A stretch of 64,000 nt of DNA, taken from positions 683,666 through 747,665 of the forward strand of contig CP066690.1 in the NCBI GenBank assembly GCA_016432465.1, in the 5' to 3' direction. Positions within the stretch are counted from its first letter, which is position 1. Every line of letters begins with the position of its first letter. Both the position numbers and the translations under genes were made by a program. The DNA is from Candidatus Sungiibacteriota bacterium (GTDB taxonomy: Bacteria; Patescibacteriota; Minisyncoccia; Sungbacterales; HO2-52-23). The notes under the pieces are model-generated. The model searched no databases, was not told the DNA's origin, and was given only the letters and a program-made list of their open reading frames with translations. Below, one piece after another: positions 54 to 64,000 of this stretch.

Positions 54-114
54 TGTTTATACACGATCAGTCGCCTATTTAGGATTGTGTAGTTCAGCTT
101 GCCCCGCCACCTCT

Positions 115-409
115 GGGCGTATAGCTCAGTGGGCGAAAGACAATCCGTCTTTCGCGGGAAATTTAGTGAGCCTGCGAAGCAGTGCGAACGTAAAGAATTT
201 CCCGGGGTTTTGCCGAGAAGGTAAAACAGCGCGTCATCCCCCACTTATTTCGGACAGTATTTCGGGTGTGTAGCTCATTGGTAGAGCACTTCACTGATAA
301 TGAAGTGGTAGAAGGTCCGATTCCTTCCACACCCATTTTTAGTCCGCAATAAGTGGGGGACAAGCTGATAATGACGAGGTCCATGGTTCGATCCCATGTA
401 CGCCCACCA
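115..409 (+). ncRNA. split or interrupted tRNA-like gene. The 5' acceptor/D region GGGCGTATAGCTCAGTGGG is at 115-133. The 3' half is at 365-409: anticodon loop CTGATAA, T-arm CATGG-TTCGATC-CCATG, acceptor TACGCCC, discriminator A and an encoded CCA. About 230 nt of structured intervening sequence lies between, and it contains the tRNA-Ile gene
   Basis: GGGCGTA at 115-121 is complementary to TACGCCC at 399-405. The leader ccccgccacctc (102-113) is complementary to the trailer gaggtggcgggg (410-421). The intervening sequence carries group-I-like P and P7 candidates. The fold is unresolved. Confidence 0.35.
264..335 (+). tRNA. tRNA-Ile (anticodon GAT). The cloverleaf is complete, the T-loop is atypical (TCCGATT), and no CCA is encoded
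   Basis: Hand fold: acceptor GGGTGTG/CACACCC, D-arm GCTC-ATTGGTA-GAGC, anticodon arm CTTCA-CTGATAA-TGAAG, T-arm GAAGG-TCCGATT-CCTTC. Confidence 0.6.
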
Positions 410-417
410 GAGGTGGC

Positions 418-480
418 GGGGTGAAGTAGAACGCTATCCTGATAAGATAGAGGTCCCAGGTTCGATCCCTGGCACACCCA
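418..480 (+). pseudogene. degenerate tRNA-Ile(GAT) copy. The anticodon arm, T-arm and acceptor 3' strand (CACACCCA) are intact, but the D-arm is deleted and the 5' acceptor is imperfect
   Basis: CTATC-CTGATAA-GATAG, CCAGG-TTCGATC-CCTGG and CACACCCA are present. The 5' side reads GGGGTGAAG rather than GGGTGTG. Confidence 0.4.
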
Positions 481-1679: not shown

Positions 1680-1779
1680 CCCCGTTAGAGATAAGGTTTC
1701 TACCCTGATAACAAAGATCACCAAAATTACAGGTGAGTATTATTCAAAGGCGCTGTGGATAACTAAATCTCTAACGGGG
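1680..1779 (+). repeat. MITE-like palindromic element with 13-bp terminal inverted repeats CCCCGTTAGAGAT / ATCTCTAACGGGG
   Basis: Arms at 1680-1692 and 1767-1779. The same ACCCCGTTAGA core recurs at 38357-38427 and 41398-41526. Confidence 0.55.
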
Positions 1780-2349: not shown

Positions 2350-3039
2350 TTACGAAGCGGGCTGGAATGGGTACGGCTGATCAAAGTCGCACTTCCTGTT
2401 TTTGCACTGGAAGCGTTTGGTTTTAGCAAAACACCGCTTTTCAGTCTGACATTTAGGACAGGCCACCATCCATGAATCAGTACCCTTGTGATCGGTCTTA
2501 CGATATGGACTGGTTACCACTGGCCCAACAGCAGCATCCATCACCTCTTGTAACCACTGCTTGTGTGTTTCGTTTGTTGGTACGGGGTTGCGACCATTTG
2601 TTTTGTCTTCCTCAATCCTCCTTAGCTCATGAGTAAAAAGTCGTTTGGCGAACTCTTTGGGGAAAATATCCAAAAGCTGCATAAGGAAAAGATCCTGCCA
2701 GTCCATACCTTTTAGGGGACCCTCGCGCACCGCCGTGTCCAGAATACTTTCGGTCGTAGCCAAACGAAGAGCAAACTCAAAGTGCGGGTCAGAAAACAGG
2801 GTGTCTTTATTCACACGGGATTGTAGCTCTGTAGTAAACAGGTCAGCCATCTCTGCGGATAAACCGTCTTTCTTCAGCGAGACTATTAACGATTTCTTTC
2901 CATGGGCTACGATTAGACTTAAACAGGCTAGAGCCTGCTCCGGGGTCATGTTGTGGATTTCTCTTTGTATCTGCATTGTGGCTCTACCTATTGTTAGGAT
3001 ACGAGCCATACCCCGATCAAACACATCTAGTTTCAGCAT
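2350..3039 (-). CDS. hypothetical protein with a C-terminal zinc-ribbon (CPKC...CKNRKC)
   Basis: 229-aa ORF. The opposite-strand ORF 2645-3064 is antisense noise. Confidence 0.5.
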   Translation of the reverse strand: MLKLDVFDRGMARILTIGRATMQIQREIHNMTPEQALACLSLIVAHGKKSLIVSLKKDGLSAEMADLFTTELQSRVNKDTLFSDPHFEFALRLATTESILDTAVREGPLKGMDWQDLFLMQLLDIFPKEFAKRLFTHELRRIEEDKTNGRNPVPTNETHKQWLQEVMDAAVGPVVTSPYRKTDHKGTDSWMVACPKCQTEKRCFAKTKRFQCKNRKCDFDQPYPFQPAS

Positions 3040-4435: not shown

Positions 4436-5689
4436 GTGAACCTTGATAGCTATAATCAGGAAGAAACACGCAAAGAGTACTCTGACCCCAGAGATGATGT
4501 CGGCCGCTACCTAGATGAAATCGGACTAATACCGATGCTCAAGGGTCGGGAAGCAGAAAAGGAGTTGAGTGAGGAGATCGAAAAAGCCAGGCGCAGTATT
4601 TGGCGGCTGATTCGGCATATTCCCCTTATTACCGAAACAAAAAATAACGTAGGGGTTTCAACGGGTGACCTGCCGCGTCTTGTAAAGAAGTTACATCGGC
4701 GTCTCCAAAAGATGGAACGGCTGGTAGAAGAAAGCGCCTCTTTGTCTCCGGGCCAAAAACGCAGCGCTTTAAGGCGCGAGAAACAACGTCTCGAAAAAGA
4801 AGTCGGCATCTCTCATCGGAAGTTAAGAAGTATCTTTAAAAAAATTAATGCCTTTGAAGCTCAAGCCCTTTCGGCGAGGAACAGGTTGGTAGAGGCCAAC
4901 TTGCGGTTGGTGGTTTCTATTGCGCGTGGGTATAGGTCTCCCGGGCTTACTTTGGGTGACTTGATTCAAGAAGGCAACACCGGTCTTATGAGGGCTGCAG
5001 CCAAATTTGATGCCTCTATGGGGTTTAAATTTTCAACCTATGCCACGCCTTGGATAGAACAAGGCATCAGAAGGGGCATTGAAAATCAGGGACGGTTAAT
5101 CCGTCTTCCGGCTTACGTACAGAGCAACTTTACGCATTTACGGAAGCTTCAGCGTTCTTTGCTGGGTAAGTACGGACGCCTACCAGATGAAGAAAAGCTT
5201 CGTGCTTTTGTCCGGGCCTCCGATCGTGGGGTTAAAGACCGAAGTTTATCCGGTCTTATTCCTTCCTTCTTTATACACGAAAACAGTCTCTTATCGCTTG
5301 ATCGTGAGTTGGGGAAAGAGGGAGAAGAAAGAGTCACTAAGTTGTCTGATTTGTTTGAGGACGAATCGATCGCCTCTCCCGAAGATCAGGTTGCAGCCAA
5401 AGAATTTACGGCGAAAATGTTAACGCGGCTTGAAGGACGCGATGGTTTTTATGAACGTATGGCCGAAGTCATACGTTTGCGTTTTGGGGTTGATGGTGTG
5501 GAGCGTCCTCACACTCTTGATGAAGTTGGCAAGATTTTGGGTGTTTCCCGGGAGCGGGTAAGACAGATCGAGGAGAGGACGCTTCGTAAACTTAGCATAT
5601 ATGCCAAACAGCTTATGAGGATAAATCTTAGGCCGGCACAAAGTGGTGTAAACGGAAAAGTCTTTGGGTCCACAGCCCATAGAAATTAA
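4436..5689 (+). CDS. rpoD: RNA polymerase sigma factor, sigma-70 family (primary sigma, RpoD-like), GTG start
   Basis: Regions 1.2, 2.1-2.4 (DLIQEGNTGLMRAAAKFD, FSTYATPWI), 3 and 4.2 (TLDEVGKILGVSRERVRQIE). RBS AAGGAGGA at 4420-4427. Confidence 0.9.
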   Translation: MNLDSYNQEETRKEYSDPRDDVGRYLDEIGLIPMLKGREAEKELSEEIEKARRSIWRLIRHIPLITETKNNVGVSTGDLPRLVKKLHRRLQKMERLVEESASLSPGQKRSALRREKQRLEKEVGISHRKLRSIFKKINAFEAQALSARNRLVEANLRLVVSIARGYRSPGLTLGDLIQEGNTGLMRAAAKFDASMGFKFSTYATPWIEQGIRRGIENQGRLIRLPAYVQSNFTHLRKLQRSLLGKYGRLPDEEKLRAFVRASDRGVKDRSLSGLIPSFFIHENSLLSLDRELGKEGEERVTKLSDLFEDESIASPEDQVAAKEFTAKMLTRLEGRDGFYERMAEVIRLRFGVDGVERPHTLDEVGKILGVSRERVRQIEERTLRKLSIYAKQLMRINLRPAQSGVNGKVFGSTAHRN

Positions 5690-32553: not shown

Positions 32554-32686
32554 TGTAGTCCGTCAACCTTTTAAGTTGTTGTTTGCATTATTTTCTCCGG
32601 CATGCTATACTGTATATATAGCTTAGTATTAAAACATATTTAGGTCTTAGATATCTACTTTTCGTTGATGTTGAAAGGCCATTCAT

Positions 32687-32743
32687 CCCACACATAACTT
32701 GCACAGGGCATTTGTGCAAAGCACGGTGCAAGTTATGTGTGGG
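32687..32743. repeat. perfect 18-bp inverted repeat (CCCACACATAACTTGCAC ... GTGCAAGTTATGTGTGGG) with a 21-nt centre, flanked by ATTCAT direct repeats. MITE-like palindromic element or hairpin
   Basis: Read directly from sequence. It sits in a 490-nt intergenic region. Confidence 0.55.
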
Positions 32744-33046
32744 ATTCATCCTCCCAACTTTTTGCATCGATAGTTTCGGCTTATTTGCAAGCGGGCGAGT
32801 GAAAAGCAAACTTGTTTGCTTTTCCGAGCGAGTGCTGCAAATATAGGAGAAATTACCCTATATTTTTAAGATAAGACGCCAGAGGTATACGAAATCCTAC
32901 GGCACGTAGATACTTCGCTGCAAAAAGTTGGGAGGACAAGGTTTTAAGAAGAGCAAGGTCGTTACATAATTAGCTTTTAGCTTACAGCTTATAGCTTTCA
33001 GGATAATCCTAGAAGCTAATTCCTAAAAGCTAGAAGCTCGTCGAAA

Positions 33047-33244
33047 GTGGCTTTTCAAGATCAAAGAGGTGGATTTCAGGATGATCGTCCTAAGTACGAC
33101 ATCACCTGTTCCAAGTGCGGAGCAGCCTCTACAGTACCCTTCCCGCCAACTGCGGGACGCGATGTCTACTGTAAGGACTGTTTCCGTGAGATGAGACCGC
33201 CCCGTCGTGACTTTCACGGCGGTGGAGGATTCCGACCTCGATAA
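33047..33244 (+). CDS. small zinc-ribbon protein (CxxC-x17-CxxC)
   Basis: CSKC...CKDC. Confidence 0.5.
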   Translation: MAFQDQRGGFQDDRPKYDITCSKCGAASTVPFPPTAGRDVYCKDCFREMRPPRRDFHGGGGFRPR

Positions 33245-33247
33245 ATT

Positions 33248-33289
33248 AAACCAAAATCCCCTGAACAATGTTCAGGGGATTTTGGTTTA
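33248..33289. terminator. rho-independent terminator (perfect 17-bp stem)
   Basis: AAACCAAAATCCCCTGAACA-atg-TTCAGGGGATTTTGGTTT. Confidence 0.7.
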
Positions 33290-33315
33290 ATATACGGACG
33301 TAGTATAATTTCCGC

Positions 33316-38033: not shown

Positions 38034-38867
38034 ATGGATTTATCTCTCGTTATTCCGGCATTTATTGCTGGTATCCTGACATTTTTAGCTCCCTGCACCT
38101 TGCCTTTGGTGCCGGGTTATTTGGGCTTTATCAGCGGGGCCTCGCTGGAGGACTTAAAAGACCCGATGAAGGCGTCCACGGCCCGTCGTAAAATTTTTCG
38201 GAACGGTTTATTTTTTATTCTTGGATTTAGCGCCGTCTTTATTATTATGGGTACGTTAGTTGGATTTGTCGGAGCCTCTCTGCTTGCCCCTTACAGATTT
38301 TGGTTATCAAGAATTGGCGGCGTATTTGTTATTCTTTTCGGTCTTTTTATGCTTCACCCCGTTAGAAATCCGCCCCGCTTCTTAAGCGCGGCGGCAGCCG
38401 TCTTGGGGCGGCTTATTTCTAACGGGGTGAATGTTTTAAAAATTTCGTTTCTTGTTCGGGAAAAACAACTTAAGGCGCCGGGCGCATTGGAAAGAGGAAA
38501 GTCGCTAACTTCTTTTATATTAGGTTCGGCTTTTGCTTTTGGTTGGACTCCTTGCGTGGGGCCCATTCTTGGGTCCATTCTTCTTCTTGCTTCAACTTCA
38601 ACCACTGCGTTTCAGGGGTCTTTGCTTTTGGCTGTTTTTTCCGCAGGTCTTGCGGTTCCGTTTCTTCTGGTGGCACTGGGTATTGGTTCGGCCGCGAAAT
38701 TCATTTCCAAAATTTCTAAGTTTTTGAGCGTGGTATCTGTTATCGGCGGCCTTCTGCTTATTTTCTTGGGTATATTATTGCTTACGGGCAATATGGCCCT
38801 TCTGATTTCTTGGGGCTACCGTCTATTTCAATTCATCAACTATGAAAGGTTATTGGATTACTTATGA
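38034..38867 (+). CDS. ccdA: cytochrome c-type biogenesis/disulfide transporter CcdA (DsbD family)
   Basis: TM Cys pair (LAPCTLPLVP..., WTPCVGPILGSIL). A 71-nt palindromic insertion lies at 38357-38427. Confidence 0.75.
   Translation: MDLSLVIPAFIAGILTFLAPCTLPLVPGYLGFISGASLEDLKDPMKASTARRKIFRNGLFFILGFSAVFIIMGTLVGFVGASLLAPYRFWLSRIGGVFVILFGLFMLHPVRNPPRFLSAAAAVLGRLISNGVNVLKISFLVREKQLKAPGALERGKSLTSFILGSAFAFGWTPCVGPILGSILLLASTSTTAFQGSLLLAVFSAGLAVPFLLVALGIGSAAKFISKISKFLSVVSVIGGLLLIFLGILLLTGNMALLISWGYRLFQFINYERLLDYL
38357..38427 (+). repeat. CCCCGTTAGAAAT / ATTTCTAACGGGG palindromic element inserted within the ccdA coding sequence
   Basis: Arms at 38357-38369 and 38415-38427, with a nested CCGCCCC/GGGGCGG pair inside. 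Confidence 0.5.
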
Positions 38868-41390: not shown

Positions 41391-41397
41391 ATATGAA

Positions 41398-41526
41398 CCC
41401 CGTTAGAAGTCTTGGGCAGAAAAATTTTATGAAAATTTTTCTGCGTGTATATCGCGGGAATTATCAAAATAACCATGAAAAACAACAACATAACACAAAG
41501 TGAGGACGCTCCGACTTCTAACGGGG
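41398..41526 (+). repeat. CCCCGTTAGAAGTC / GACTTCTAACGGGG palindromic element spanning the 5' end of the downstream redoxin gene
   Basis: Arms at 41398-41411 and 41513-41526. Confidence 0.5.
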
Positions 41527-41954
41527 TGAAAGCCCCGGAATTTATAACCGAAAATGAACAATGGCTCAATTCAGAGCCGCCGAAGATCGCTGATTTAAAA
41601 GGCAAGGTGGTTTTAATTAAATTTTGGACTTTTATGTGCTCTTGGTGCCAGCAGGATTTGCCGGGCATTATGGAGATTGAAAAGAAATACAAAGACAAGG
41701 GGTTGGTGGTAATCGGCATCCATTCCCCGGAAACAACTTTTGAGCGCGACGTAGAAGCATTAAAGAAACAAATGAAAGTTTTGAAAGTGGACTTTCCGGT
41801 TCTTACCGATAACGCAAGACAAAATTGGAAAGCATACAAAGTAGAAAACTGGCCGGCGTATTATTTAATTGACCGTGAAGGAAACATTGCTTTTAGCATT
41901 CTTGGTCCGGGAGTCGAGGACCAATTAGAAAATAAAATTAAAAATTTAATATAA
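41475..41954 (+). CDS. thioredoxin-fold redoxin (AhpC/TSA/TlpA-like)
   Basis: CSWC active site. The start is uncertain (41445 or 41475). Confidence 0.6.
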   Translation: MKNNNITQSEDAPTSNGVKAPEFITENEQWLNSEPPKIADLKGKVVLIKFWTFMCSWCQQDLPGIMEIEKKYKDKGLVVIGIHSPETTFERDVEALKKQMKVLKVDFPVLTDNARQNWKAYKVENWPAYYLIDREGNIAFSILGPGVEDQLENKIKNLI

Positions 41955-42868: not shown

Positions 42869-42949
42869 ATTAAAATCCTTTTTCGTATTATGATTTCTAA
42901 CGGGTCAAGTTGTTGCGAAACACCACAATTTAATAAAGGGGGTGAGGAT

Positions 42950-44431
42950 ATGGAAGAGAATAAAACTGAAACACATGAAAAATCCGTGATCGCGCGGGAG
43001 CTTTGGTTTCAAGAAAACGAAAAAGAATTTATCGCAGAACACAGTATTGGCGCAACCATAAGAGCCGGCGACCGAACAGCGGAAACGACCGACCCCAAGG
43101 GCGGATATCGAGAAGGAGGATTTGTTACCTTGAAAATTCAAAAAGCTGACGGTAGCTTTGATCCCTTGGAGACAACGGTAGTGGTATACTCAGCTAAAAA
43201 AAAGGTGTTGGGAGAAATTAAGCCGGAAGATTTAGAAGGAACGCCATTGTCCCAGAAAACCAAAACAGCGCTCATTGAAAAATTAACGCGTCTTTACGGG
43301 AGAGATTTTACCGACAACGACACTGTTACGATTGTGCGGTTTGAATACGCAGATGATCTAAAGGAAGCTGGTAAGAAGATACTTGCATCTCTTCAGACCT
43401 TTGCTCAAAATGATTTACTCGAATTAAAAAACGGGCCTTTTCGTTTGGCCCCTGAATACAAGCCATCTGGTCTTACCCCTGAAAATATCAAAGGCCGGCC
43501 ACTTTCATTTATTATCGGTGAACAGCCCTCCGAGTATGCCGTCAGCCCCCTGATGTGGAATGCAGAATTCAAAATGAGGGGTTCAAATGGACTTTTTTTG
43601 CCCGTTGATATCGCCCCGGATAAAAAGGGTAATCTGAAAGAGTTTATTGATAAAATCGTTGAGATCGGAAATTTGGTTTTTCGTGTTTTGACTATTACCA
43701 ACCCCTACAAAATCGATGCCTTGCAGTACTTCAAAAATCTGCAAGAGAGATATCCTGATCGAGTGGATTTGAGCGAGGATGCTTTGCGTATTGGCGCTAC
43801 CAATCAAATACTAATCGGGCCTGATAACAAGTTTTACGTTATTAACTCCGATGGTCGCGGCATGGCAAATAGTATTGAGGAATTTCTTAGTGGTAAAAAC
43901 CGGGGAAATTTGGAGGCAAAACACGTTGGTCTGGTCGGCGCCGGCGGCGCTGCTCGGGGTATCGCTTATGAGGTTGCCAAGCGAATGGGTCCTCATGGTT
44001 TGCTGACAATATTTAACCGAACGCAGGAAAAGGCCGTAGCTCTGAAAGCGGAACTATCTAGCTATTTACCACAAACACCGATAGAAGCCCGGGGCCTCAA
44101 TGAACTGCCCGGTCAGGCGAAAGAACAGGAAATAATTATTTCGTCCATTACTGAGGGTGACCCTCTTTCCGATTCTGGTGTATATAAAACCCTTCCCCGG
44201 GGAATTTTGATTGTCGATGCTAATTATGGTCCTAAATCTATTATTGAACAAAAGGCGCATGAGGCAGGACGTGACGATCTTGACATTCATGATGGTGCCG
44301 GTATGGTCGTTGAGGGCTATATTATTGCATCACAAGAACTTTCGCGATTGTGGAAATATGAAGTTTCCAGGGAAGTGTATCGGGAGATCGGATTTGTGTT
44401 TGGTTATAGGAAGCGGGCTGCGAGTTCGTAA
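42950..44431 (+). CDS. shikimate dehydrogenase-like (AroE-family) domain fused to a roughly 195-aa N-terminal domain of unknown function
   Basis: SPLMWNA, TNPYK, NSDGRG and VGAGGAARGIAYEV Rossmann motif. Strong RBS GGGGGTGAGG before the ATG at 42950. Confidence 0.55.
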   Translation: MEENKTETHEKSVIARELWFQENEKEFIAEHSIGATIRAGDRTAETTDPKGGYREGGFVTLKIQKADGSFDPLETTVVVYSAKKKVLGEIKPEDLEGTPLSQKTKTALIEKLTRLYGRDFTDNDTVTIVRFEYADDLKEAGKKILASLQTFAQNDLLELKNGPFRLAPEYKPSGLTPENIKGRPLSFIIGEQPSEYAVSPLMWNAEFKMRGSNGLFLPVDIAPDKKGNLKEFIDKIVEIGNLVFRVLTITNPYKIDALQYFKNLQERYPDRVDLSEDALRIGATNQILIGPDNKFYVINSDGRGMANSIEEFLSGKNRGNLEAKHVGLVGAGGAARGIAYEVAKRMGPHGLLTIFNRTQEKAVALKAELSSYLPQTPIEARGLNELPGQAKEQEIIISSITEGDPLSDSGVYKTLPRGILIVDANYGPKSIIEQKAHEAGRDDLDIHDGAGMVVEGYIIASQELSRLWKYEVSREVYREIGFVFGYRKRAASS

Positions 44432-58298: not shown

Positions 58299-59822
58299 AT
58301 GGCTTTAGAAGATATTCGTAAGGAACGGCTCAAAAAATTAGAAAAGCTGCAAAGTACTGGTAGTGACCCCTATCCGGCCGAGTCGGGCCGGACGCATTTG
58401 ATTGGGGAAGTTTTAAAGAAATTCTCGGCATTGGCTAAGTCCAAAAAAGCGGTGGCCGTGGCGGGGCGCATAATGGCTAAGCGCGAGCATGGGGGATCAA
58501 CATTTATTGATATTCAAGACGCAGGCGGTCCGCCCCTTCGGGGTGAGGCTCGCCCAGCTTCGCTGGGCGGCAAAATTCAAGCCTATTTCAAGAATAACGT
58601 GTTGGGGGAGAAGTACGGGATGTTTATGGAGACCGTTGATATTGGCGATTTTCTCGGTATAGAGGGGAAGCTTTTTAAAACCAAAAAAGGCGAGGAGACG
58701 ATTGAGGTTTCTGGCTGGCAGATGCTGGCAAAATCGCTCCGGCCCCTGCCCGAGAAATGGCATGGTTTGCAGGATGTGGAGGAGCGTTTCCGAAAACGAT
58801 ACTTGGATATTTTGATGAACCCGGAAGTTCGCGAGCGATTTGAGACGCGCTCCAAAATCATCAGGGTCCTGCGCGATTTTTTTGAGAAAAACGGCTTTTT
58901 AGAAGTAGAAACACCCATGCTTCATCCAATTCCCGGAGGGGCGCTCGCCAAGCCCTTTGTAACGCATCATAATGCTTTGGATATTGATTTATATTTGCGG
59001 ATTGCGCCCGAACTTTATTTGAAGCGTTTACTCATAGCCGGCTGGGAGAAGATATTTGAAATTGGCAAAAGTTTCCGTAACGAGGGAATTGACGCATCGC
59101 ATAATCCTGAATTCACAGAACCCGAATGCTACGCTGCTTACTGGGATGAAGAAGATATGATGAAGTTTGTTGAAGATTTATTTTTATCGCTATTGAGGTC
59201 GGACCTCGATAGAAGCTATCGAGGTCCGACCTCCAGACATCAAGTTGAATTTGAAGGTAAAAAAATTATTTTCAAAAAACCATTTCCGCGGATCGCTTTT
59301 AAAGAGCTTCTCAAGCGCTACGCCTTAGTTATTGACTACGACAGTGAGTCGCGGGATTCTTTGGCTACCCGTGCGCGGCAATTTGGAATTGAAGTAGGTC
59401 GGCATGAAACAAAAGGGAAAATTGCGGATGAGATTTATAAAAAAATCTGCCGGCCGCACTTGGTACAGCCGACGTTTGTGGTAAATCACCCGTTGGATAT
59501 ATCGCCTTTGGCCAAAAGGGCAAAGCATGCAGGAGAAGTTAGGCGTTTCCAGCTTGTCGCAGGCGGTATGGAGCTCACCAACGGTTTTGCGGAACTAAAT
59601 GACCCCTTGGATCAGCGAAAACGATTTGAAGAACAAGAAAATCTTCGCGGCGGAGGTGAAGAAGAGGCGCATCGGATTGACGAAGATTATATGGAAGCCA
59701 TGGAATACGGAATGCCCCCTGCTGCCGGTCTTGGAATCGGTCTTGATAGAGTGGTGATGCTATTTACCAATACCAAAAACATTCGTGAGGTAGTATTGTT
59801 CCCCACAATGAGGCAGAAATAA
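58299..59822 (+). CDS. lysS: lysine--tRNA ligase (class II)
   Basis: OB anticodon-binding N-terminus and class II motifs 1-3 (FRNEG, GGAG.GIDR). Confidence 0.9.
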   Translation: MALEDIRKERLKKLEKLQSTGSDPYPAESGRTHLIGEVLKKFSALAKSKKAVAVAGRIMAKREHGGSTFIDIQDAGGPPLRGEARPASLGGKIQAYFKNNVLGEKYGMFMETVDIGDFLGIEGKLFKTKKGEETIEVSGWQMLAKSLRPLPEKWHGLQDVEERFRKRYLDILMNPEVRERFETRSKIIRVLRDFFEKNGFLEVETPMLHPIPGGALAKPFVTHHNALDIDLYLRIAPELYLKRLLIAGWEKIFEIGKSFRNEGIDASHNPEFTEPECYAAYWDEEDMMKFVEDLFLSLLRSDLDRSYRGPTSRHQVEFEGKKIIFKKPFPRIAFKELLKRYALVIDYDSESRDSLATRARQFGIEVGRHETKGKIADEIYKKICRPHLVQPTFVVNHPLDISPLAKRAKHAGEVRRFQLVAGGMELTNGFAELNDPLDQRKRFEEQENLRGGGEEEAHRIDEDYMEAMEYGMPPAAGLGIGLDRVVMLFTNTKNIREVVLFPTMRQK

Positions 59823-63181: not shown

Positions 63182-63227
63182 AACTTAACTCTTGGTGGAA
63201 GATAAACATGGTGTATAAAAATGTTTA

Positions 63228-63254
63228 GGGTTCCCATTGCTGGGAACCCTTTGG
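63228..63254 (+). terminator. rho-independent terminator after ftsQ
   Basis: GGGTTCCCA-ttgc-TGGGAACCC followed by TTTGG. Confidence 0.5.
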
Positions 63255-64000
63255 TACTGTGATGACCCATCCCTAACGGACGGGAGCTTACCTTACACGA
63301 AGCCGGACACTCCTTCTACTCCTTTCTGCCCGTTTTATGTACGGGCGGGCCGTATGGAGTGGGCGCCGTTAGACATATGGGGCGGGGAGGTGCCAGCAGT
63401 AGCCCCGGCCTGGATCACGAACAAACGTATGGCTCGAGGACTCCTTACTGGGCCTTGCCCGCCCCCCCAGGAGTGGTGTTGCCCGCCCCCAAAATAGTGT
63501 GGCAGGCCACCCTCCCCCAACGGAGCGGCGGTACGGCGGGCTCAAACTGCCATTCCCCGCCGTTATACCGCTGCCCCTCCCGCAAGGTTCCCACGCGGTC
63601 GCCAGTTAAGAGCGATTTTCAGCCTTGTGCTGGGTGGCCTCTCGTAAGGTAGGCCCACTGCCCAGCGGCCTAGCGCGGGGGAACCTTGTTAAAGGAATTA
63701 TGTTAAATGGGCTTTCCCTGACTACTACTACCCCGTCGGGCAGCAGCTCAAGGAGGACGCGCCGTCATGGCCGCTTTAGCCCCCATACCCCGAAGAGACG
63801 GTTACCTCGGCCGAGGTCCTCTCCTGCTGCCCCATAGATCGGGGGCTCGGGATACTTCGAACCCGGCCAACCACTGAACTGGCGCCAGCTCAATGGTTGG
63901 GCTTGCAAACGCCAGTTCTGGTGAAGAAAGCTGGCGTACCGAGCCTGGTTCCCGCCCTGCATGCAATCAGAGGCAGGGAAGGGACTCGGGTAGGTTGAGC
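63255..64000. ncRNA. large GC-rich (~62%) structured non-coding region of unknown class. It continues beyond the window end
   Basis: No credible ORF in six frames. Many GC-rich helices, UUCG and GNRA-type capped hairpins, long-range complementarity (CAAGGTTCCCACGCG / CGCGGGGGAACCTTG) and a 34-nt palindrome. Confidence 0.45.

Follow-up and report, generated by a model that had tools for sequence, protein, structure and literature searches.

The window, i.e., the whole stretch of 64,000 nucleotides of DNA analysed here (contig CP066690.1 of assembly GCA_016432465.1, positions 683,666 to 747,665 of the forward strand), derives from a Candidatus Sungiibacteriota bacterium of the Patescibacteriota and carries a short, perfectly paired inverted repeat at three places: behind a semiSWEET (PQ-loop/MtN3) gene, within the ccdA (DsbD_TM) open reading frame (ORF) and at the junction of a merA-like and a thioredoxin-like gene. 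A preliminary description of the window had grouped the three loci by a common core and had read them as members of a mobile family of MITEs (miniature transposable elements with inverted repeats), not as independent terminators. The common core was found exactly at all three loci: the window contains six exact CCCCGTTAGA 10-mers, which form three inverted pairs CCCCGTTAGA...TCTAACGGGG (1680-1689/1770-1779, 38357-38366/38418-38427 and 41398-41407/41517-41526). By chance this paired arm pattern is expected 0.00 times in the window. Permitting one mismatch, 11 matches to CCCCGTTAGA are present vs 3.8 expected, a count that is reached in 0 of 100 shuffles. The arms extend to 13, 13 and 14 bp in copies 1, 2 and 3, respectively, with compensating bases GAT/ATC, AAT/ATT and AGTC/GACT.

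Copy 1 (1680-1779, 100 nt) has a 13-bp stem, CCCCGTTAGAGAT / ATCTCTAACGGGG, starts 4 nt past the semiSWEET stop codon (TGA 1673-1675) and is flanked by ATAA and CTTG, i.e., it has no duplication; its spacer measures 80 nt between the 10-nt cores and 74 nt within the 13-bp stem. Copy 2 (38357-38427, 71 nt; 38353-38431 including the flanking 4-mers TTCA and TGAA) lies, as previously stated, inside ccdA, where the plus-strand ORF 38034-38867 spans it and reads through in frame. Copy 3 (41398-41526, 129 nt, 14-bp stem; 41394-41530 with flanks) starts 7 nt past the stop codon of the merA-like gene (TAA 41388-41390) and shows a clean 4-bp duplication, TGAA, at 41394-41397 and 41527-41530. Removal of the element and of one TGAA rebuilds a putative empty site reading ...TAA AT ATG AAA GCC..., which suggests that copy 3 inserted into, and split, the start codon of the thioredoxin-like gene. 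The right end of the element remakes an in-frame GTG (41526-41528) and the interior has an in-frame ATG at 41475, so that copy 3 may provide replacement starts for this gene. The empty-site sequences deduced are GGAATAAATATGAAAGCCCCGG for copy 3 and TTTATGCTTAATGTTTT or TTTATGCTGAATGTTTT for copy 2. Several measures of the preliminary description need adjustment: the distances to the semiSWEET and merA stops were given as 5 and 8 nt, the spacers as 40-100 nt (80, 51 and 109 nt between the 10-mers), and the ends aCCCCGTTAGA...GGGGt hold apart from copy 1, which ends in GGGGc.

All three copies are predicted to form very stable hairpins on both strands (z -4.8 to -9.4), with predicted RNA folding energies of -39.6 kcal/mol (z -4.8) for copy 1, -53.1 kcal/mol (z -7.7) for copy 2 and -47.2 kcal/mol (z -7.1) for copy 3. 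No terminator or promoter was called at any of the three copies, nor was a U-tract. Rfam 15 at gathering score returned only two tRNA matches for the whole window (264-335 and 417-480), neither at one of these copies, and permissive Rfam searches around all three yielded sub-threshold chance matches only. The 64 kb read from the source genome hold three copies and one relic, a degenerate solo right arm TCTAACGGGT (42896-42905, plus strand) that is probably what is left of an older copy. It overlaps the start of ORF 42890-44431 (513 aa), which begins ATG ATT TCT AAC GGG (MISNG), its first codons being the relic arm. A phage ORF in locus L134 likewise begins MISNGV, within a copy.

The family extends far beyond the window. 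A single pattern scan, for CCCCGTTAGA-N36-96-TCTAACGGGG in species-representative genomes, gave at least 120 matches, and those listed belong to six bacterial phyla or more (Patescibacteria, Omnitrophota, Planctomycetota, Desulfobacterota, Cloacimonadota and Bacteroidales among the labels). Among the 80 titled genome matches listed, 31 are Patescibacteria of many classes, 18 Planctomycetota, 10 Desulfobacterota or 'delta' and seven Omnitrophota; Cloacimonadota, Bacteroidales, one gammaproteobacterium and others also occur. GC content at the host loci lies between 27 and 59%. Overall, the unique copies number at least 148, spread over more than 120 contigs of many phyla, which bears out the earlier claim of a mobile miniature inverted-repeat family. 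Several contigs end inside a copy or within 100 nt of one, as would be expected of repeats at which assemblies break. In viral contigs the paired pattern was found in four cases, including a Mu-like phage, with no link to a transposase; single-arm 14-mers in viral contigs are mostly solitary matches and presumably due to chance. Full-text literature on the motif, its peptide translations, in-frame MITEs or RAYT genes (transposases of repetitive extragenic palindromic (REP) elements) in the candidate phyla radiation (CPR) gave no description of the family, with incomplete coverage.

Across 136-148 unique copies, 29-146 nt long and with perfect arms of 10-14 bp, the stem is exactly 13 bp long and consists of 10 conserved and three variable, co-varying base pairs. 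The outer 10 bp are CCCCGTTAGA / TCTAACGGGG. Base-pairing at positions 11, 12 and 13 is found in 91, 93 and 73% of the copies, respectively, vs 41, 56 and 34% expected, and at position 14 pairing drops to chance (27% vs 29% expected). At position 11 the pairs are A-T (73), G-C (29), T-A (18) and C-G (4), and the sequences seen at positions 11-13 include AAT, AGT, GAT, GAA, TAA and others. Left and right arms are complementary at positions that vary in sequence, and therefore the conserved object is a 13-bp helix and not just a word. That the stem is kept by base-pairing, and not by sequence alone, goes beyond the preliminary description. The interior is arbitrary: it ranges from a 3-4-nt loop in minimal hairpins of 29-32 nt, which bear the same flanks as the longer copies, up to more than 100 nt, with unrelated sequence of 50-130 nt in other copies, and comprises an entire tRNA gene in two cases. 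Moreover, homologous interiors define several subfamilies whose members occupy unrelated sites in different genomes and phyla; one such subfamily is common to Omnitrophota, a Doudnabacteria metagenome-assembled genome (MAG) and an unclassified MAG.

The flanks carry a second signature. Identical flanking 4-mers occur in 68 of 148 copies vs 10.3 expected under partner shuffling (maximum 20 in 2000 shuffles), and identity at 5 nt is found in three copies only; as identity rarely reaches the fifth base, the repeat is exactly 4 bp long. A T at -4 and an A at -1 are mirrored by a T at +1 and an A at +4, giving TNNA on both sides in 83 of 130 copies. The target preference is TNNA, weakly G/TNNA/C, and the net gain is the element plus 4 bp. 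Even rare 4-mers are duplicated exactly, i.e., TTAG (L015), TAGA, TCCA, CGAG and TATG. The non-identical flanks are non-random as well, most of these copies having TTYA directly 5' of CCCC on one strand or on both: read on either strand, the 4-mer 5' of CCCC is TTTA in 37, TTCA in 35 and TAAA in 4 of 160 half-sites, and the combinations seen are TTYA-element-TRAA, TTYA-element-Y and Y-element-TRAA, the arrangement TRAA-element-TTYA not being seen among copies with non-identical flanks. Furthermore, the flanking 4-mer is partly heritable: TCAA stands at three independent members of one GC-rich subfamily, and TTTA/TAAA flanks all five members of another. Relative to gene direction, the element-borne 4-mer lies downstream in 14 and upstream in 5 cases, a weak trend (p = 0.06). 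No guide-like covariation between the flanking 4-mer and stem positions 11-18 was seen by eye. At L027 (2942-3105) two copies stand head to tail with one 4-mer between them (...TCTAACGGGG CTCA CCCCGTTAGA...), an arrangement which resembles a circle junction or a recombinase-type dimer integration.

Empty sites, a further check that the preliminary description had proposed, are present in three settings: in siblings of a nested copy, in ccdA homologues and in tRNA genes that are restored by removal of an element. In the first, one subfamily member (L015) contains a nested minimal copy with TTAG on each side, and its siblings L078, L030 and L013 read ...CCGTTAGAGAAC... uninterrupted across the same site. 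This direct filled-versus-empty pair shows a clean 4-bp duplication.

At ccdA, the protein encoded in the window has 277 aa vs 252 aa in nearly all homologues, with the extra 25 residues located between GLFML and NVLK. Compared with the empty alleles, the net insert of copy 2 spans 38355-38429 on the plus strand, i.e., 75 nt or 25 codons (HPVRNPPRFLSAAAAVLGRLISNGV). Empty alleles read ATG CTT/AAT (L340) or ATG CTT/AAC (L131) and filled alleles ATG CTT CA(CCCC...GGGG)T(A/G) AAT. The same site holds GTTAGA-type elements in the window and in L127, L128 and L129 and CACACC-type elements in L130 and L338, and both stem types have the flanks TTCA...T(A/G)AA. The insert-bearing ccdA genes do not form a clade: the nearest relatives of protein P0004 lack the insert (distance 0.094), and P0012 and P0116 are 0.27 apart as proteins, yet their inserts differ at only 3 of 45 interior nucleotides. 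The codons of the ccdA arms show zero synonymous change across homologues that are 66-81% identical in protein.

Translated copies are not restricted to ccdA. About one copy in six (24 of 133) lies within a long ORF, and all of these are in frame. Their arms are nearly always translated as xPVR...SNGV and in a few cases as TPLE...LTG, the third frame running into TAG or TAA. In 63 of 130 copies the element length plus 4 is a multiple of three, a surplus in keeping with selection on the coding copies. Copies are found in both orientations relative to genes, and many sit exactly at operon gene junctions, such as TAGA-element-TAGA-ATG in L056. Genes that appeared to be interrupted, and that deletion of the element would fuse in another frame, proved to be neighbouring genes; there is therefore no sign of intron-like removal or of ribosomal bypassing.

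The third setting is a nest of related elements at the start of the window. An outer element (102-421, plus strand; stem CCCCGCCACCTCT / AGAGGTGGCGGGG, flanks CTTG and TGAA) interrupts the D-loop of a host tRNA-Ile(GAT), leaving halves at 83-101 and 426-480. Its flanks and insertion point match those of L073, an element with the CCCCGTTAGA stem, so that the D-loop site ...GCTTG/.../TGAA-GTAGAAC holds a GTTAGA element in a Saccharibacteria MAG and a GCCACC element in the window. Deletion in silico of the element plus 4 nt lets ARAGORN find tRNA-Ile(GAT) in the window and tRNA-Val(CAC) in L073. By eye, the outer element appears to carry as its cargo a second tRNA-Ile, broken in the D-loop and beside the anticodon loop. 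Nested in this cargo is an inner related element (238-359, plus strand; stem CCCCCACTTATTTCGGAC / GTCCGCAATAAGTGGGGG), which holds the only intact tRNA-Ile(GAT) of the nest (264-335). The whole Russian-doll region (83-480) has a predicted fold with z = -10.5.

Together, these observations argue that the copies form a family of mobile, non-autonomous hairpin DNA elements, a reading to which we give a probability of about 0.8; the earlier MITE-like reading is supported, and every test run agreed with it. Because pairing and not sequence is conserved at positions 11-13, the mobilising enzyme probably recognises the stem in the form of a cruciform or of a folded single strand. In the mechanism we propose, an enzyme supplied in trans would recognise the stem and cut with a 4-nt offset, and the flanking 4-mer would be carried along with the element as a 'coupling sequence'. 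Copies persist where harm is small: between operon genes, at gene ends and, within genes, only if their length and frame leave the ORF open. The non-identical flanks, the heritable flanks and the recurrent sites suggest that the flanking 4-mer travels with the element; taken together, they are not explained by any one model. A more far-reaching version can be put forward only tentatively: that this is a cargo-agnostic hairpin transposon specified by its structure, in which a 13-bp stem with the CCCCGTTAGA core would suffice for whatever DNA it encloses to be moved, probably as a folded single strand, by an enzyme shared or exchanged among at least six phyla, and which would ferry tRNA genes, hit tRNA D-loops (replacing the genes) and the CcdA loop repeatedly and write xPVR...SNGV loops into proteins.

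Several points weigh against mobility of this kind. First, 80 of 148 copies have no identical duplication although their arms are perfect, so that simple cut-and-paste with duplication of the target site does not fully account for the family; the flanking 4-mers are identical in the other 68 copies. Second, elements with different stem words occupy one and the same site in ccdA, and likewise in the tRNA D-loop, which random TNNA targeting does not predict; these recurrent sites suggest that a few permissive sites were invaded again and again, or that there is some site preference. Third, some multi-copy contigs (L011, L023, L359) reflect larger duplications and not fresh insertions, and two of the three L027 copies also lie within a larger duplication, their right flanks matching. 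Fourth, the phylum labels are those given by the submitters of the MAGs. Finally, neither an insertion-sequence (IS)-sized element with these arms nor a transposase was found in about 0.9 Mb around the copies, and no gene family is enriched near them (974 ORFs clustered; ORFs near minimal hairpins as well). For the third point, L023 offers an observation of its own: 320-nt inverted repeats (2046-2369 and 4832-5155) with one element copy in each surround a 2.5-kb segment, which encodes a 686-aa secreted protein and may be an invertible or composite unit.

The search for the moving enzyme covered about 2.6 Mb of loci, in which no arm pair 0.3-6 kb apart encloses a transposase; the arm pairs found 0.3-8 kb apart are separate small copies or larger duplications only. 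The families recurring near copies are housekeeping families. Since no autonomous partner element is evident, 'MITE' names a form and not yet a proven mechanism. Two candidates were rejected. One is a 229-aa ORF (2350-3039, minus strand) beside copy 1, with a sub-threshold match of its C-terminus to an IS1595 zinc ribbon; no relatives of it occur near other copies. This ORF lies in an otherwise plus-strand region. The other is a family of RAYT-like Y1 transposases of about 230 aa, common in CPR-type metagenome contigs, of which 83 genes were examined (L340, 1277-2075; L056, 6168-6974; L120, 7021-7808; and the 80 metagenome loci L341-L420). Other palindromes flank these genes, never CCCCGTTAGA hairpins: most are bracketed by a lineage-specific perfect palindrome of their own (arms 10-29 nt, loop 0-7 nt), which often has a further copy in frame inside the RAYT-like gene itself. 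A Y1_Tnp gene was found beside an empty ccdA allele. In the window, tandem perfect palindromes TATTGAGGTCGGACCTCGATA and TATCGAGGTCCGACCTC lie at 59189-59236, in frame within ORF 58299-59822, and palindromes of this class flank, and sit inside, RAYT-like Y1_Tnp genes of other genomes.

Which kind of enzyme might move the elements can be weighed on the same data. Cut-and-paste of double-stranded DNA, with a stagger of 4 bp and with flanks that are carried over, is possible, if only tentatively so. It could proceed by piggyBac/IS1380-like flaps or by a Tn916-like recombinase whose overlap is 4 bp; the arms would then be protein-binding sites, and an excised circle would give a 13-4-13 palindromic core site. 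The duplication of exactly 4 bp, the mixed flanks (TTYA,Y) and (Y,TRAA), which are as retained donor flaps or coupling sequences would leave them, and the head-to-tail dimer at L027, joined by a single 4-mer, all fit this mechanism. Moreover, CCCC...GGGG ends beside a T..A tetranucleotide recall the TTAA/CCC ends of piggyBac, which is a lead only. What double-strand transposition leaves unexplained is the left-right complementarity at positions 11-13, for which the three window copies use three different triplets. No gene for such an enzyme was found near any copy, and the junction-type site TCTAACGGGG-N4-CCCCGTTAGA that a circle would provide is absent from the viral contigs searched. A 4-bp-overlap recombinase with coupling sequences is compatible with parts of the data and shares the strengths and weaknesses of the DDE model.

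Somewhat more doubtful is single-strand hairpin transposition in the style of REP/RAYT or IS200/IS605 by a Y1 HUH enzyme, which disputes the mechanism and not the mobility. The enzyme would bind the folded 13-bp stem and cut on both sides next to a tetranucleotide, and the hairpin, together with one of these tetranucleotides, would be re-inserted 3' of a similar one, so that the flank 'duplication' would be the target plus an element-borne cleavage site. Such an enzyme accounts well for the pairing at positions 11-13 with its sharp end at 13 bp, for minimal hairpins of 29-32 nt that bear the same flanks, for the irrelevance of the cargo and for a flanking 4-mer heritable within subfamilies. 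The asymmetry of the flanks (TTYA 5' of CCCC; TTTA 37 and TTCA 35 vs TAAA 4) and the tendency of the element-borne 4-mer to lie downstream (14 to 5, p = 0.06) are in line with it, as is the fact that RAYT-like genes with their own palindromes, some in frame inside genes, are common in similar genomes. However, HUH transposition produces no duplication, and yet rare 4-mers are duplicated exactly. REP families are usually species-specific, not cross-phylum, 0 of the 83 RAYT-like genes are flanked by CCCCGTTAGA hairpins, and the guide-like covariation of flank and stem was not seen by eye.

It is unlikely that the copies are primarily functional RNA stems, i.e., RNase III or other processing sites, mRNA stabilisers, terminators or translational regulators, with the DNA features being secondary. 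The stability of the predicted stems on both strands and their co-varying pairs would suit an RNA, the position of many copies right after stop codons or around tRNAs fits a processing stem, and the ccdA arm codons lack synonymous change. But exact 4-bp duplications and empty sites are DNA insertion events, the copies lie in either orientation with respect to genes and, within ORFs, are translated, and no U-tract, terminator call or Rfam match was obtained at the window copies. In addition, the flanks in the sense-strand RNA of ccdA give a C.A mismatch, not a G.U pair. An RNA role could be an added effect after insertion.

Invertible DNA switches (invertons), with the inverted repeats as invertase sites that flip the interior, are very improbable: one inverted repeat is indeed common to many loci with differing interiors, the interior of copy 3 has a start codon and flipping the 51-nt interior of copy 2 would bring in a stop codon, but loops of 3-4 nt cannot invert, flank duplications and empty sites indicate insertion, no recombinase gene lies nearby and all six assemblies of the source species show a single orientation at ccdA. 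Least credible are independent, vertically conserved terminators or chance palindromes, for which the position of copies 1 and 3 just past stop codons speaks, since the paired pattern is expected 0.00 times, copy 2 lies inside a gene, no terminator was called at any element, as the earlier claim implied, and the same 10-mer recurs at non-homologous sites in unrelated phyla, on more than 120 contigs.

Three further observations in the window stand apart from the family. About 800 nt behind a POTRA_1 (FtsQ-like) gene (63200-64000) are GC-rich, have stops in all six frames and show no Rfam match; this may be a decayed region or a structured RNA that has yet to be described. An intergenic hairpin cluster at 32685-33301 comprises 28-nt arms (32685/32718), 33-nt arms (33235/33269) and 22-nt arms 144 nt apart (32749/32915). 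Finally, three independent Logan assemblies of the source species (L001, L002, L003) break at about 40029, roughly 108 nt into the merA-like gene, and this common break may point to a repeat or to variation between strains.

Genomes of CPR/Patescibacteria usually count as poor in mobile elements. The element described here, of 30-150 nt, is frequent (three copies in the 64 kb of the window) and common to Omnitrophota, Planctomycetota and Desulfobacterota of similar habitats. If confirmed, it would be a marker for DNA exchange across phyla in subsurface communities and a source of in-frame protein inserts and altered gene starts that are now annotated as ordinary sequence. It would also be a cause of contig breaks in MAGs and would mean that tRNA genes can be carried by, and replaced through, a miniature element. 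An enzyme that recognises a 13-bp stem with any cargo would moreover be of interest for its mechanism and for tool development.

Among known systems, intrinsic terminators require a GC-rich hairpin with a short loop and a 3' U-tract, whereas none was called at the three copies, one of which lies inside an ORF. An inverton reading is ruled out by loop size and flanks. Integron attC sites are likewise folded hairpins of variable length that are read by structure, and GTTAGA/TCTAAC fits the R-box GTTRRR/YYYAAC. The polarity, however, is reversed, the 5' arm carrying GTT and the 3' arm AAC, vs 5'-RYYYAAC...GTTRRRY-3' in attC, which rules out this reading, and the copies are scattered singly, also inside genes, and do not form arrays; no integrase genes were noticed near copies, the neighbours not having been screened for intI specifically. 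Palindrome-associated transposable elements (PATEs) derived from IS200/IS605 have neither inverted terminal repeats nor a duplication and carry separate subterminal hairpins, whereas the ends of the family pair and duplications exist. With the piggyBac/IS1380 DDE group the family appears to share a 4-bp T..A duplication, CCC...GGG ends and carried flanks, but its target is TNNA and not TTAA, no DDE gene was found and stem covariation would be unexpected there.

Three further systems resemble the family. With REP/REPIN elements and their RAYTs the family has in common a hairpin unit, a conserved adjacent tetranucleotide, compensatory changes and, presumably, an enzyme acting in trans; REPs, however, are extragenic and lineage-specific and flank their RAYT gene, none of which holds here, and the family has real 4-bp duplications and a loop cargo of more than 100 nt. 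Rickettsia palindromic elements (RPEs) are palindromic selfish DNA that is inserted in frame in unrelated coding genes and translated as extra loops (PMC10969869), which is the property shared with the in-frame copies described here. RPEs differ in their length of about 100-150 bp, their conserved interiors, their restriction to Rickettsia and the absence of a defined 4-bp duplication; they have no sequence in common with the family, which is not confined to one host lineage. MITEs such as Correia, RUP and ERIC are the nearest in form, being small (29-150 bp), non-coding, multi-copy and bounded by terminal inverted repeats, with a short duplication that only part of the copies described here show, and with copies between genes and now and then in frame inside genes. 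Known bacterial MITEs are limited to one species or genus (PMC10969869), whereas the 10-bp core of the family spans phyla. The interiors of the family are unrelated, so that only the 13-bp ends define it, and these ends co-vary as a stem; half of the copies have no simple duplication, and the parent insertion sequence with matching ends that the MITE class requires was not found. In sum, the family departs from MITEs, RPEs and REP/REPIN elements on a defining test each, while its form is that of a MITE, its conduct within genes recalls RPEs and its hairpin, defined by structure, recalls REP/REPIN elements.

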